A stretch of DNA of 62,065 bases, filler included, from Clostridia bacterium (GCA_030637025.1; 4 parts of 4 records of this genome joined end to end with filler, not necessarily neighbours in it); one strand, 5' to 3'; shown: positions 5,003 through 46,506, counted from the first letter of the whole stretch. Translations and numbers: made by a program. Notes: generated by a model from the letters alone, not told the origin.

Positions 5003-5085
5003 TTCGACAAAAGCAAATCTCGAGCAATCGAGAGACGCAAAGCCACGGTCCACCATTAAGTAATGGCGGAAGCCGGGCTACCGAA
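5003..5085 (+). ncRNA. GEMM-I riboswitch (c-di-GMP-I fold), A20 variant typical of 3',3'-cGAMP sensors
   Basis: CG-ACAAAA-GCAAA-UCUCGA(GCAA)UCGAGA-GACGCAAAGCCACGG...AGCCGGGCUACCG; matches the GEMM consensus and ends a few nt before the ATG at 5088. Confidence 0.88.
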
Positions 5086-5087
5086 AA

Positions 5088-15251: not shown

Positions 15252-15289
15252 ATCTGATTTTCCTTAAATTATTTTACTATTTTACTAAT

Positions 15290-15345
15290 AAAAAACGGGC
15301 TACCTTACTTGGCTATAATTATCTTATAGTCAGTTCGGTAGCCCG
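15290..15345 (-). terminator. Intrinsic terminator overlapping the aptamer 3' end (expression platform)
   Basis: CGGGCUACC...GGUAGCCCG followed by a U run. Confidence 0.8.
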
Positions 15346-15504
15346 GCTATCTTGTTTTTTAAAAAAAGACCCGTAACTTTGCCTGCTTACTAAGCAAAAA
15401 CTACTTTTTGTCCCGCATAGTAAGCGATTCATCCATTATCCGCCGCTACTTAACAACGGAAAAATAAATAAATGTCTTCGCCTCACGACGAATCTGCCTT
15501 TTCG
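15336..15504 (-). ncRNA. c-di-GMP-I (GEMM) riboswitch with a 91-nt two-hairpin insertion
   Basis: CG-AAAAG-GCAGA-UUCGUC(GUGA)GGCGAA-GAC [15473-15383] GCAAAGUUACGGGUCU...AGAUAGCCGGGCUACCG. Confidence 0.8.
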
Positions 15505-15551
15505 GATAAAATTTTCAAAGAAATACTTGTTTAAGAGCTTCCTTACTTAAT

Positions 15552-15580
15552 AGTATAGCACAAAACTTCTCTTTTGTCAA
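15552..15580 (-). promoter_or_regulatory. Sigma70-type promoter of riboswitch operon B
   Basis: TTGACA-17 nt-TATACT with extended -10 TG. Confidence 0.75.
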
Positions 15581-15605
15581 TATTGTTTATGTCCCATAAC
15601 CTTAC

Positions 15606-16544
15606 TTATTCATACGCCTGGGCACTAACACAAACAGATATTTTTTGTGGACTGCCAATGGAAGTTGTCTGCGGAGCTTTAAATTCAACCCATAAATATA
15701 CAAATTCTCCTACAGATAAACCTACCCCATCTTCATTCCCGGCAAATTTACCATCCGGAGAAGAGCCACATTCTGCCGGGGTTGTAGATAAAGCATGCTG
15801 ACTATTATTAAAACTCCCTTCTGACGGCCGAGTTGAATTAAACATTACACTAAGAATATACCGGTTATGCTCAATCGGTTCACTTTGCACTGCAGTCCAG
15901 CCGGGAGGATTTTTTAACTTTAATAAACAATTTAATACACCCTCACCAATATTTCTAACCAGAAAAGATTGAGTAGATATTGCATCCCCACCGGCAGAAA
16001 CCTCTCCAAAATCATAGGCACCTTCTATAGATATACCGATTATTTCTGCCCTGGCTATAGCATAAGCACAACTACCTATCCCTGTATAAGGGTCATAATT
16101 AGAAATATATCCCTCATAAGGCGGAGGGCCATCAGCAGCTATTATCTCCTCTGGAACTTCTTCTAAGACAGCATTATCCGTGGCTTTAATGGAAATATAA
16201 TAAAGTTGCCCCGGATTAAATCCGGTAAGCATATATCTTTCTAATTCCCCTTTTGCTTTTGGTGTCCAGGTTTGAGAATATATAGTGGCATTGTTATATG
16301 CTTCTTCTGTATCTATGGGACTACCGGAATATCTCACCTCATAACTTGCCACTCCGGGTTGCCAATCAGATAATTCGTTCGGAACTCTCCAGGTTATTTC
16401 TATTTCTCCTCTGTCCAATCCGGTATAAGCTGCTAAATCATCAAGAGTTAAAAGATATCCCGGGACGGAAGTGGCATAACTATATGCAATTACTCCCAAA
16501 ATAATACTACTTGAGATTATAAATCCCCTCAAAATCTTTTTCAT
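15606..16544 (-). CDS. Secreted FN3-like domain + C-terminal beta-rich domain shared with 20611..21702
   Basis: IEITWRVP-YEVRYS-LTGFNPGQLYYISIKATD; then YDFG...VRNIG...PPGW...LWVEFKAP...QKISVCVSA. Confidence 0.65.
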   Translation of the reverse strand: MKKILRGFIISSSIILGVIAYSYATSVPGYLLTLDDLAAYTGLDRGEIEITWRVPNELSDWQPGVASYEVRYSGSPIDTEEAYNNATIYSQTWTPKAKGELERYMLTGFNPGQLYYISIKATDNAVLEEVPEEIIAADGPPPYEGYISNYDPYTGIGSCAYAIARAEIIGISIEGAYDFGEVSAGGDAISTQSFLVRNIGEGVLNCLLKLKNPPGWTAVQSEPIEHNRYILSVMFNSTRPSEGSFNNSQHALSTTPAECGSSPDGKFAGNEDGVGLSVGEFVYLWVEFKAPQTTSIGSPQKISVCVSAQAYE

Positions 16545-20610: not shown

Positions 20611-21702
20611 TTAACTTTTTTCCGCAGTAACTACTACGCGAATTGTTTGTTGTCCTGATATTGAACCACCTGTCGGTGTTTTGAGTCGAATCCATACTGC
20701 CCGCGTATTATTCCATGCCGAATCCCAGGAAACAGCTACACCATTACCACTATCATCACTGTCAAATTTACCTACCGCTCCTGAATCCGCACACTCCTGA
20801 GAAGTAGTAGTAATAATATCCTCTGCACCAAAATCCTCTGTTATTATACTCCCAGGTGTTACATCCGTGTTAGAAACCACACCGTAAATAACATATTCGT
20901 TAAATCCAGGGGTCTCATCAGCACTTGAAGACCAACCCGGAGGGTCAAGTACTTTAAGCAGAAAATCTTCGTTCACATCTCCGATATTGGCTACGGTCAA
21001 ATACTTATCACCTACAGCGTTTTCACTGCTAATCATCTCTATCCCATATGATGAATCTCCAAAAGCCATATTTCCGGAAACACTTACACCTACTGTTCCT
21101 CCGCTTATAGTAACCGTGATAATACCTGCTCCACCGCCCACATATTTTATATCATCAACAAAAACCTCAATCGGGTTGGTTAAACTGGAATTTTCACCTG
21201 CCGCTAACATCATCCACCAAAGATTGGTAACCGCACTCATATTTTGCTTGGAAAGATCTATTTCTGCTGCTGTCCATCCGGTAGAACTAATAGTAATCGG
21301 ATCTCCGGCAACAGTATGTTCACCGCAAGAATCCTCATCCAAAGTTCCCGAACCTACACCGAAATGAGCAACAACACCTTCTTTATTAGCAGAAACATTA
21401 AATTGCATTTTCGTATGGCCGGTTAAATCAAGAGGTATCGCTCCGCCAAAAGCTTGTGCACCGATTTTTGCCCAGGTAATTTCTTTAGGAAAAGAAAATT
21501 TTGCACAAATATCGTCTCCGCCTTCATATGGGTCAGTAATCTCTGAGTCCGTTATATCACCGGCAGCACCACTCCATAAAGACAGAACCTGCTGCCAACT
21601 ATCTTCATAAATCGGAGTATCTGCATAGGAATTACCTACCATAAACATGCTGGTTACAACTAACAACGCCATTATAACTAAAGACTTTTTCATTTTTTTC
21701 AC
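20611..21702 (-). CDS. Secreted CBM-like domain + C-terminal beta-rich domain shared with 15606..16544
   Basis: LDLTGHTKMQF...WTAAEIDLS...VFVDDIKY; then MAFG...VANIG...PPGW...VWIRLKTP...QTIRVVVTA. Confidence 0.65.
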   Translation of the reverse strand: MKKMKKSLVIMALLVVTSMFMVGNSYADTPIYEDSWQQVLSLWSGAAGDITDSEITDPYEGGDDICAKFSFPKEITWAKIGAQAFGGAIPLDLTGHTKMQFNVSANKEGVVAHFGVGSGTLDEDSCGEHTVAGDPITISSTGWTAAEIDLSKQNMSAVTNLWWMMLAAGENSSLTNPIEVFVDDIKYVGGGAGIITVTISGGTVGVSVSGNMAFGDSSYGIEMISSENAVGDKYLTVANIGDVNEDFLLKVLDPPGWSSSADETPGFNEYVIYGVVSNTDVTPGSIITEDFGAEDIITTTSQECADSGAVGKFDSDDSGNGVAVSWDSAWNNTRAVWIRLKTPTGGSISGQQTIRVVVTAEKS

Positions 21703-21891
21703 CTCCTTCCTTTGTTTTATTTTTTTTATTTATTTTGTAATTATAAAAAAAACCATACCACTAAATCCGGGAGGAAAACAACAATTTTAATATACCTGAT
21801 TAGCTTAAATATGGGCAATTCGGTAATAAAAAACGGAAAGTTTATTAATTCTCAGAGGTTTTTACTTAAAACTTTCACCTAATTATATAAC

Positions 21892-21950
21892 AAAAAAAAC
21901 CGACCCACCTACTTGGCTACAATTGTCTTATAGTCAGTTCGATAGTTCGG
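21892..21950 (-). terminator. Intrinsic terminator overlapping the aptamer 3' end
   Basis: CCGAACUAUC...GGUGGGUCGG followed by U8. Confidence 0.75.
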
Positions 21951-22106
21951 CCATCCCCCCATTACTTACCGGCGGACCCGCAACTTTGCCTGCTTACCAG
22001 GCACAAATCAAAAATATACCTTTTGACCTGACTCCAGTAAGAGACTTACCCGTCATCACTTAGCGACGAATAAGTGCCTTCGCCTCACAGCGAATTTGCC
22101 TTTTCG
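21940..22106 (-). ncRNA. GEMM-I riboswitch with an 86-nt two-hairpin insertion; U at the C92-equivalent position
   Basis: CG-AAAAG-GCAAA-UUCGCU(GUGA)GGCGAA-GGC [22075-21990] GCAAAGUUGCGGGUCC...GGAUGGCCGAACUAUCG. Confidence 0.8.
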
Positions 22107-22137
22107 TATAAAATTTTCAAATATCAAATCTAAAAAT

Positions 22138-22167
22138 ACTATACCATATTTTTTTTACCTTTGTCAA
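22138..22167 (-). promoter_or_regulatory. Sigma70-type promoter of riboswitch operon A
   Basis: TTGACA-18 nt-TATAGT with extended -10 TG. Confidence 0.7.
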
Positions 22168-22189
22168 GAAAAAAATAAAAAACATTTTA

Positions 22190-23143
22190 CTACCTAACCG
22201 GAACACCCTTCTCTCCTCCCCATTTTATAGTTATTCCTATCCTGTGGGGGAAATAGAATTCACTCTGTTTTCTCCATGCACTCCGGTAAACAAAAGCATA
22301 ATCCAGCTGAAAATCTAAAAACTCAATTCCAAATCCGCTGGTTATTTCATTTTCGTTTATACCCAATCTGGCCGATATTAAATCTTCCATCAACCGGTAT
22401 TCCCCTCCACAGTACATTTTTATTTTTTCCCCGTCTATTTTTAAAGTGTCAATAGCCAGATATAATTTATTTTCCAATATCCTGCAATCTACCCCAAATC
22501 TTACACTAAAAGGAAACTTATCCTCCTCTTCTATCAATTTAATAACCGGTTTAATTATGTTCTGTAAATACAAACCAGCGGAAACAGGCATAAGTTTATA
22601 TTTATACATTACCCCTAAATCCGCTCCATATCCGGTATCAGAATAAGTATCTATTTTCTCCCGTACTATTTTCACGCTCCCGCCTAAATAAAAAGCAGAG
22701 CATATTTTTTTACTTAAAGCGATTATCCCTGCTGTTTGAGCAACATCAAAATCTCCGATATCTTCATTATCCTGATTGCGTTTATCCAATCCCGAGGACC
22801 TTAAATCTACTATCCCCAGTCCTATCCCAACATTTTCCCGCGGTAAAGCTAACCCTAAAAAACTATACGGGGTATCCTCATTCAATAAAGAATAAGCCGC
22901 AACTAATTCTTTTCTTTTTATTAAACTCAAACCCGCAGGATTCCAGTAAACACTACTGGCATCCTCACATCCTGCAGTATATGCTCTGCCTAAACCTAAA
23001 GAACGAACACCCGCACCCCAAAAAAGATATGCTCCCGGTATCCCTCCGTCTTGTTCGGCAAATCCTACCTCAGGACATATCCACAAACTAATTACCCCTA
23101 TTAATCCTAATCTCAAGATTAATCTATATTTTTTTTTACCCAT
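22190..23143 (-). CDS. PorV/PorQ-family outer-membrane barrel
   Basis: GAYLFWGAGVRSLGLGRAY-DASSVYWNPAGL; LDYAF...HRIGITIKW. Confidence 0.8.
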   Translation of the reverse strand: MGKKKYRLILRLGLIGVISLWICPEVGFAEQDGGIPGAYLFWGAGVRSLGLGRAYTAGCEDASSVYWNPAGLSLIKRKELVAAYSLLNEDTPYSFLGLALPRENVGIGLGIVDLRSSGLDKRNQDNEDIGDFDVAQTAGIIALSKKICSAFYLGGSVKIVREKIDTYSDTGYGADLGVMYKYKLMPVSAGLYLQNIIKPVIKLIEEEDKFPFSVRFGVDCRILENKLYLAIDTLKIDGEKIKMYCGGEYRLMEDLISARLGINENEITSGFGIEFLDFQLDYAFVYRSAWRKQSEFYFPHRIGITIKWGGEKGVPVR

Positions 23144-23304: not shown

Positions 23305-23404
23305 NNNNNNNNNNNNNNNNNNNNNNNNNNNNNNNNNNNNNNNNNNNNTTAATTAATTAANNNNNNNNNNNNNNNNNNNNNNNNNNNNNNNNNNNNNNNN
23401 NNNN
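23305..23404. other. Artificial contig linker
   Basis: N-run, TTAATTAATTAA (stops in all six frames), N-run. Confidence 0.98.
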
Positions 23405-41479: not shown

Positions 41480-41579
41480 NNNNNNNNNNNNNNNNNNNNN
41501 NNNNNNNNNNNNNNNNNNNNNNNTTAATTAATTAANNNNNNNNNNNNNNNNNNNNNNNNNNNNNNNNNNNNNNNNNNNN
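41480..41579. other. Artificial contig linker
   Basis: N/TTAATTAATTAA/N. Confidence 0.98.
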
Positions 41580-46406: not shown

Positions 46407-46506
46407 NNNNNNNNNNNNNNNNNNNNNNNNNNNNNNNNNNNNNNNNNNNNTTAATTAATTAANNNNNNNNNNNNNNNNNNNNNNNNNNNNNNNNNNNNNN
46501 NNNNNN
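46407..46506. other. Artificial contig linker
   Basis: N/TTAATTAATTAA/N. Confidence 0.98.

Follow-up and report, generated by a model that had tools for sequence, protein, structure and literature searches.

One of three GEMM-I (c-di-GMP-I) elements carried by a single contig of Clostridia bacterium (GCA_030637025.1) has a natural U at the position equivalent to C92 of the Vc2 aptamer, and this substitution most likely retunes the switch instead of defining a new sensor. The element, referred to here as copy A, lies in a 62,065-nucleotide stretch of DNA (the window; all coordinates are counted from its first letter). The window is made of several joined pieces, with runs of N at 23305-23404, 41480-41579 and 46407-46506, and contig C58, corresponding to window 1-23304, contains all three elements. 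We directly established the sequence of copy A, its fold and covariation, the strand shared by its aptamer and its terminator, and the recent origin of its U92.

The GEMM-I fold of copy A occupies the minus strand from 22110 to 21935 as a 176-nt aptamer. From 22110 the RNA reads UAUACGAAAAGGCAAA, followed by the P2 hairpin UUCGCU-GUGA-GGCGAA, and approximately 85 nt past this hairpin the GEMM sequence picks up again as GGCAAAGUUGCGGGUC...GAUGGCCGAACUAUCGAACUG. The Rfam model RF01051 matched the 5′ half at 17.4 bits and, separately, the 3′ half at 22.1 bits, each below its gathering score of 35 because the insert splits the match. All parts of the RF01051 architecture are present, namely P1, P2 and P3, the junctions AAAGGCAAA and GCAAAG, and a GNRA loop on P2. 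The canonical pocket G20/A47/C92 is incomplete. The G20 equivalent, which contacts the first ligand base, is the G at 22100 (minus strand) within AAAAGGCAAA, as placed by the 5′-half Rfam alignment and by our own covariance model R1 (see below), and A47 is retained within GGCAAAG, while position 92 is a U. In the RF01051 alignment of the 3′ half, UAUCGAA of copy A lies under the consensus UgCCgaa, thereby placing the U at 21942 (an ‘a’ on the plus strand) in the Vc2 C92 column, and R1 puts it in the same column.

Direct reading of the minus-strand RNA at 21952-21935, which gives ...GGCCGAACUAUCGAACUG for copy A and ...AGCCGGGCUACCGAACUG for its counterpart in copy B, together with these alignments, bore out the preliminary description, in which UAUCG of copy A had been set against UACCG in the other copies. 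The three pocket genotypes that it had assigned by manual alignment were also right by the Rfam and R1 alignments: A20/C92 for the element at 5003-5086 (+), with AAAAGCAAA and CUACCGAA; G20/C92 for copy B (listed there at 15336) at 15334-15510 (−), with AAAAGGCAGA and CUACCGAA; and G20/U92 for copy A. Copy B itself reaches 35.5 bits with RF01051 only via local alignment. The base at 21942, which the preliminary description had proposed to confirm, is U in the contigs of all four public runs covering 21600-22400; the four runs belong to one study that is possibly the source of the same DNA, and contigs hide minor alleles. The flank CUA-U-CGAAC of copy A matches CUA-C-CGAAC of five relatives letter for letter.

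What appears as a split in copy A is an insertion of approximately 85 nt between P2 and the GCAAAG junction. When folded alone, the segment from P2 to GGCAAAG formed exactly two hairpins filling the segment in each of the eight sequences folded. We named these hairpins Pi1 (11-12 bp, 22044-22075) and Pi2 (21993-22041, an outer helix of 8 bp, CUUACUGG:CUGGUAAG, plus an inner helix). The predicted folding energy of the 176-nt aptamer was −62.7 kcal/mol, compared to −46.7 ± 4.2 kcal/mol for shuffled sequences (z = −3.8). A search of the insert for ribosomal or other known RNA families found none at E up to 10.

We built covariance model R1 from three A-type sequences with a structure of 44 pairs comprising P1, the G21-C22:G45-C46 closing pairs, P2, Pi1, Pi2 and P3. 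Copy A scored 187.4 bits and copy B 105.9 bits, followed by the metagenome contig L170 (57.8 bits), G001:C32 (57.7 bits), copy C (C1:36905-37070; 50.2 bits), G002:C24 (50.1 bits) and the metagenome contig L136 (48.7 bits), whereas ordinary GEMM-I elements of the genus scored 22 to 43 bits. The homologues sharing the layout of copy A are copy B, copy C, G001 C122 and C32, G002 C24, G003 C257 and C313, L136 and L170. In a 12-sequence model-guided alignment (A5), standard pairs occupied 98.9% of cells and 34 of the 44 modelled pairs showed changes on both sides, although these pair counts are inflated since A5 was fitted to R1, and its lineages are few (three A-type, two near-identical B-type and single others). 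None of 500 shuffles reached the observed values, and sliding the partner strands as a control gave at most 47.6% paired.

The changes are spread over the helices: on both sides in 6/6 pairs of P2 (22079-22094), and covarying in 10/11 pairs of Pi1 and in all 13 modelled pairs of Pi2. G20, A47 and the G21-C46 partners are invariant in 12/12 aligned sequences, as are the G45-C46 closing-pair partners and the A47 equivalent at 21987-21989 within GGCAAAG. The minimum-energy fold pairs CGA with UCG at the base of the aptamer, where the 5′ (CG, 22105-22106) and 3′ (CG, 21940-21941; placed by the alignments) strands of P1 meet. This helix covaries among copies, being CG:CG in most and UG:CA in copy C, thus tying the distant 5′ half to the 3′ end. 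The fold z-score, the promoter and terminator described below, the homologues in sister species and the 34 of 44 pairs together indicate that copy A is a genuine structured, insert-bearing GEMM-I-type RNA, beyond what chance would give.

Two other placements were considered and discarded. The motif CAAAAGGUA, offered as an alternative junction J1/2 by the cmscan placement, falls within Pi2, is replaced by AGAAUAGGAGUA in the copies of G001 and G003 and is without a P1 partner. Likewise, a GGCAC:GUGCC helix around the insert is not conserved in copy B, G001 or G003 and crosses Pi2. Two MAFFT alignments were also replaced by A5: A3 (five split copies) misplaced Pi1 of copy B, and A2 (three with copy C) misplaced the 3′ half.

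A metagenome search with a 15-mer from J2/3-P3 returned at least 120 stretches; among the matches listed, filtering left two GEMM-featured loci, L136 and L170, the other listed stretches looking like chance matches. Both L136:344-506 and L170:137-301 are insert-bearing GEMM-I leaders, with terminators and with similar promoters of the form TTGACA/TGnTATAnT. The site of the insert is unchanged, and it is filled by different Pi1 and Pi2 hairpins that are rich in G+C. The insert class thus extends past this genus.

Upstream of copy A, a sigma-70-type promoter with a TG extension (TTGACA-18-TATAGT, 22138-22167, minus strand) matches the consensus at 11 of 12 positions, and an equivalent promoter also precedes copy B. 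From its position, transcription of copy A probably starts near 22131. The first downstream gene (20611-21702, minus strand) codes for a secreted protein of 363 aa that has a signal peptide and belongs to no Pfam family. The genes after it code for a protein of 523 aa bearing a CHU_C type-IX-secretion signal domain, for a PorP/SprF-like protein and for further secreted proteins, so that the label ‘surface operon’ is a fair one. An AT-rich spacer of approximately 190 nt (21703-21891) lies between the terminator of copy A and the start codon. It holds a weaker promoter-like site at 21818-21789 (−), with 9/12 matches, and a second U-rich stretch; judging by its sequence, this site might let a share of operon transcription bypass the copy A switch.

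The 3′ end of the aptamer is shared with an intrinsic terminator (21892-21951, minus strand), as seen by folding and direct reading. The sequence GCCGAACUAUC combines the 3′ strand of P3 (a helix placed at 21944-21985 by the alignments), base 92 and the 3′ strand of P1, and has as its pairing partner GGUGGGUCGG (21909-21900), directly ahead of a run of eight U (21899-21892). When the full leaders of copy A, its two A-type relatives and copy B were folded, the hairpins P2, Pi1 and Pi2 stayed in place and the terminator took over from P3 and P1. Because the aptamer 3′ strand is also the 5′ arm of the terminator, a P1/P3 stabilised by ligand should prevent termination, and by this design copy A would be a transcriptional ON switch.

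Two G-to-A changes located 4 and 5 bases upstream of U92 convert the 3′ strand of P3 from CCGGGCU, as in the orthologues, to CCGAACU, so that P3 of copy A has two U-A pairs where the orthologues have U-G wobbles. The predicted energy of the terminator region was −17.4 kcal/mol for copy A, compared to −23.4 kcal/mol for the G003 orthologue, −19.8 kcal/mol for G001 and −25.6 kcal/mol for copy B. In addition, U92 can pair with the first junction A (22104) in the predicted fold of the free RNA, which extends P1 from two to three pairs in copy A only.

We then asked how position 92 is conserved. The genome has 19 GEMM-like elements, obtained from 20 Rfam matches at E up to 1 (16 over the cut-off) by merging split halves, with the 3′ half of copy A taken from a separate Rfam alignment. 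Position 92 is C in 18 of them and U only in copy A, while position 20 is A in four, for a tally of about 14 G20/C92 and four A20/C92 switches. For the three sister genomes we read 51 Rfam rows and set aside four (G001:C94, G003:C338, G002:C24:9363 and G003:C346) as unreadable at the 3′ end or not GEMM-like. Among the remaining 47 rows, a U at the base-92 place occurs in only two elements, both with two alternative 3′ strands: G001:C32, reading GGGUUAUCGAC first and GAGUUGCCGAAG second, and G003:C336:3944, reading GAGCGUAUCGAU with one extra G and then GAGCUACCGAG. The same double-strand element is found in this genome at C73:16778-16919.

Copy A has its true orthologue in G003:C257, whose downstream protein is 64% identical over 363 aa and whose locus is colinear over 1,754 nt, at 71% identity on the nucleotide level. 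Position 92 of this orthologue is C, in GGCCGGGCUACCGAG, and its terminator 3′ arm is the same as that of copy A. G001:C122 is an A-like aptamer, also with C92, that occupies the position of copy B and has a B-like terminator; both G003:C257 and G001:C122 read UACCGA. Since the orthologue and 18 of the 19 elements of the genome have C92, U92 is, by these alignments, a derived and recent change confined to the lineage of one species. Conservation in homologues, the check that the preliminary description had proposed for U92, was thus not found. Its picture of three genotypes for three operons stands as to the genotypes, and is weakened in its framing since the three switches of this contig are three of about 19 in the genome.

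Several features of the GEMM-I repertoire of this genus came to light along the way. Its density is very high, each of the genomes G000 (this genome) to G003, of 1.6-2.6 Mb, holding 16 to 21 Rfam matches; the genus is alone in its family in the reference set, other genomes offered as relatives sharing ‘same domain’ only. Double-strand GEMM-I elements occur at G000 C73:16778-16919 (+; the same locus as L011:1501-1642), G003:C336:3944-4085, G001:C178:2822-2901, G001:C32:458-619 and G002:C24:3061-3248. Each has a complete aptamer whose last strand is non-canonical (GCGUAUCGAU or GGGUUAUCGAC), and a canonical strand (GAGCUACCGA or GAGUUGCCGAAG) that shares the terminator comes 50-70 nt later. In the non-canonical strand, position 92 is U in some sister species and C in others. 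Such an arrangement may represent a decoy-strand design. The A20 elements of the genome are found at window 5003-5086 (+) and at G000 C1:23957-24040, C77:21733-21813 and C77:19012-19131. Each of the four species of the genus has A20 in the C77:21733 type, and in C77:19012 an insert of 39 nt occupies the site that holds the insert in copies A to C.

Leaders of this group also show unusual relationships. The leader of copy B (window 15278-15806) is 90.5% identical over 529 nt, and near identical in the leader part, to positions 560-1088 of L029 (G003:C313), a 1,088-nt contig binned with G003 in which the genes past the terminator differ from those of copy B. Other orthologous DNA between G000 and G003 is approximately 71% identical, and the likeness could reflect mis-binning, recent transfer or strong constraint on the leader. 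The leader at 1490-1718 (−) of L022 (G001:C122) is a chimera, its aptamer and insert resembling copy A (73% identity) and its terminator and position resembling copy B, a pattern that suggests recombination between paralogous leaders.

U92 also occurs elsewhere in nature. A strict pattern for a canonical G20 aptamer with U92, searched across 185,579 species with one genome per species, gave 12 stretches, of which 10 passed the Rfam gathering score at 59.3 to 84.8 bits with the U in the C92 column. The hosts of G20/U92 aptamers are a Bacillus MAG (two copies), two Omnitrophica, two Rubrobacter-type, one Solirubrobacteraceae, one gammaproteobacterial and two Desulfuromonadales MAGs. The Rubrobacter-type pair is apparently orthologous and keeps the U while its distal P3 differs, so that, by sequence comparison, U92 is compatible with a maintained aptamer elsewhere. 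With either C or U allowed at position 92, the pattern gave 11 matches, spread over 8 of 397 genomes from outside the genus; as a rough estimate from this non-random sample and narrow pattern, U92 would account for approximately 0.2% of canonical G20-type aptamers. A natural G20/U92 class was not reported in the open literature that we found, and the primary mutant and variant studies may hold such counts.

Position 92 has been studied in Vc2. In the available portions of PMC5888326 and PMC6140456, one ligand guanine is contacted by G20 and the other pairs with C92 in Watson-Crick geometry, in agreement with the roles given to them in the preliminary description. The accessible part of a preprint on Vibrio cholerae (10.1101/617340) reports that the C92U mutation lowered riboswitch-dependent RNA 30-fold, with partial recovery upon expression of a diguanylate cyclase, and the C92U single mutant is said there to retain more affinity than the double mutant; as far as this partial account goes, the recovery fits a retained but lower affinity for c-di-GMP. 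Excerpts of PMC9049102 give higher Kd values for mutant pockets, with c-di-GMP at 4,900 nM for the G20A/C92U double mutant compared to 0.011 nM for wild type, and, along with excerpts of PMC7288161, state that this double mutant binds c-di-AMP. A review, in the section available, credits Shanahan et al. 2011 with the finding that C92U let a class I riboswitch bind 3′,3′-cGAMP (PMC12032345), while the natural cGAMP class is described in the available text of PMC6140456 as having A20 and keeping the C92 equivalent. Structures of Vc2 C92U and G20A/C92U are listed in PMC10671752 and PMC7288161 (PDB 3MUR, 3MUT, 3MUV, 3UD3 and 3UD4).

Set against these systems, copy A shares with RF01051 and Vc2 the helices P1, P2 (GNRA) and P3, the AAAGGCAAA and GCAAAG junctions, G20 and A47, an ACCGA-type 3′ end, a terminator on the aptamer 3′ strand and a location before surface- and secreted-protein genes. 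It differs by U in place of C92, by the two-hairpin insert of approximately 85 nt between P2 and G45, by a J1/2 that is one nucleotide shorter and by an Rfam score under the cut-off. The G20, A47, U92 pocket is that of engineered Vc2 C92U, yet the Vc2 mutants are laboratory changes in a canonical aptamer, whereas copy A is natural and contains an insert. With the c-AMP-GMP (GEMM-Ib) riboswitches of Geobacter it shares the fold and the fact that a single pocket substitution changes the dinucleotide read; these have A20 with C92 according to the accessible part of PMC6140456, in contrast to G20 (22100) with U92 in copy A. Families c-di-GMP-I-UAU (RF03168) and c-di-GMP-I-GGC (RF03167) are pocket-variant GEMM-I relatives from the same clan. 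By its name, which we take to spell three pocket positions, c-di-GMP-I-UAU presumably has U at the third of them, and its first is U where copy A has G. RF03168 (gathering cut-off 65.9 bits) gave no match at copy A among its 22 matches in the whole genome at E up to 10.

From the architecture described above, we propose the following course of events. Transcription of copy A would start approximately 25 nt before P1. P1, the G21-C22:G45-C46 closing pairs, P2 with its GNRA loop and P3 would then form, with Pi1 and Pi2 inserted before GCAAAG. On the 3′ side, the strands of P3 and P1, together with base 92, would double as the 5′ arm of the intrinsic terminator, and an aptamer stabilised by its ligand would block termination, allowing transcription of the genes coding for secreted and type-IX-secretion-associated proteins. 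U92 would still answer c-di-GMP through a G-U wobble, at lower affinity and therefore with a higher threshold, and the two G-to-A changes, by converting U-G to U-A pairs in P3 and weakening the terminator, would offset part of the loss.

We put about even confidence in the reading that copy A is a working c-di-GMP ON switch whose threshold has risen, its helix changes making up for part of the rise. That it is a working switch is supported by the rest of the pocket and by the downstream operon, both of which are intact. From the comparisons made above we infer which ligand is bound, in which direction and by how much the affinity has changed, and the compensation. The preliminary description had suggested that U92 might lower affinity or favour an adenine-containing dinucleotide; both are plausible and, in the available text of PMC12032345 and 10.1101/617340, find precedent in Vc2 mutants. 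U92 is, however, unconserved and present in a single species, and on these grounds it may be neutral or slightly harmful drift instead of tuning.

A shift in specificity is one alternative. If G20 reads guanine and U92 forms a Watson-Crick pair with adenine, copy A would prefer 3′,3′-cGAMP, bound in the orientation opposite to that of the A20-type. By analogy with the mutants, specificity may have moved and not the threshold alone, since the review mentioned above (PMC12032345, in its available section) has cGAMP binding enabled by C92U. The four A20-type elements among 19, with one type A20 in all four species, also hint that a second dinucleotide signal may exist in the host. Moreover, we viewed nine of the 10 GEMM-I matches of the two Desulfuromonadales genomes, and among these no aptamer is clearly G20 apart from the two that carry U92; five others are A20/C92 by eye (including G402:C60, with a non-standard 5′ motif) and two are odd. 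Desulfuromonadales are linked with cGAMP signalling, and the pattern is a lead drawn from two genomes with motifs read by eye.

The host itself argues the other way. U92 is found in one species only, with C in the orthologue. No SMODS-type cyclase was found in the genome, which is 97.8% complete. The genome has one DAC-domain c-di-AMP synthase and 10 GGDEF-domain matches, seven of them with a GG[DE]EF motif. Hypr enzymes have Ser at the guanine-reading Asp position; at the base-specifying Asp, which we take to be PleD D344, none of the seven GG[DE]EF domains has Ser or Thr and two have Asn. The two Asn-bearing domains, with intact GG[DE]EF, are located at G000 C14:32263-32733 (−) and C2:1414-1875 (−). 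We regard re-assignment of copy A to cGAMP as unlikely, and the corollary that G20/A47/U92 is a second natural GEMM-I solution for 3′,3′-cGAMP, a mirror image of the Geobacter-type A20/C92 pocket, is doubtful to the same degree. The further proposal that each surface operon has its own ligand or threshold keeps its plausibility as regards tuning or a change of specificity, and loses ground in its framing given the unconserved U92 and the lack of a detected cGAMP synthase signature.

Alternatively, U92, a stronger P3 and a weaker terminator could together have left a largely ligand-blind leader, with constitutive read-through or a decaying switch. The terminator region is approximately 6 kcal/mol weaker than that of the orthologue, P3 is stronger in copy A and U92 can close onto the junction A; by these folding predictions, the extended P1 and the weaker terminator could make the switch leaky whatever the ligand. 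Elsewhere in the genus, a U at base 92 is found only in the first of two alternative strands (G000 C73:16778, G003:C336:3944 and G001:C32), where it could mark a poorly binding conformer. However, the other pocket and junction nucleotides, both insert hairpins, the promoter and the U8 terminator are all intact despite only 71% identity to G003 over the 1,754-nt locus, and a terminator of −17 kcal/mol is still substantial. We regard this loss of control as about as unlikely as the re-assignment to cGAMP. Finally, that sequencing, assembly or alignment went wrong and put a U in place of a true C, a thought invited by the sub-threshold Rfam match and by the metagenome-assembled origin of the genome, is very hard to credit given contigs of all four runs identical over 21600-22400, two independent models that place the U in the same column and flanks that match those of five relatives.

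With a raised c-di-GMP threshold as the preferred reading, the meaning of copy A lies in the place that it alters. Position 92 is one of only two base-reading bases of the pocket and is almost invariant in nature, so that a natural U92 found beside C92 paralogues and a C92 orthologue offers a ready comparison for how threshold and specificity are set among cyclic dinucleotides. Copy A is also an added case of a riboswitch missed by standard annotation owing to a structured insertion, and it points to rare G20/U92 aptamers in other phyla. If U92 merely lowers affinity, it would provide a modest natural confirmation of the mutant studies of 2010-2011. If the cGAMP reading were true, a single nucleotide would have transferred a surface-protein operon from the c-di-GMP to the cGAMP regulon, and the rare G20/U92 aptamers of Desulfuromonadales, Rubrobacter-type bacteria, Omnitrophica and Bacillus would be an unrecognised type of cGAMP riboswitch. 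Copy A thus bears on whether single mutations can move operons between second-messenger regulons.
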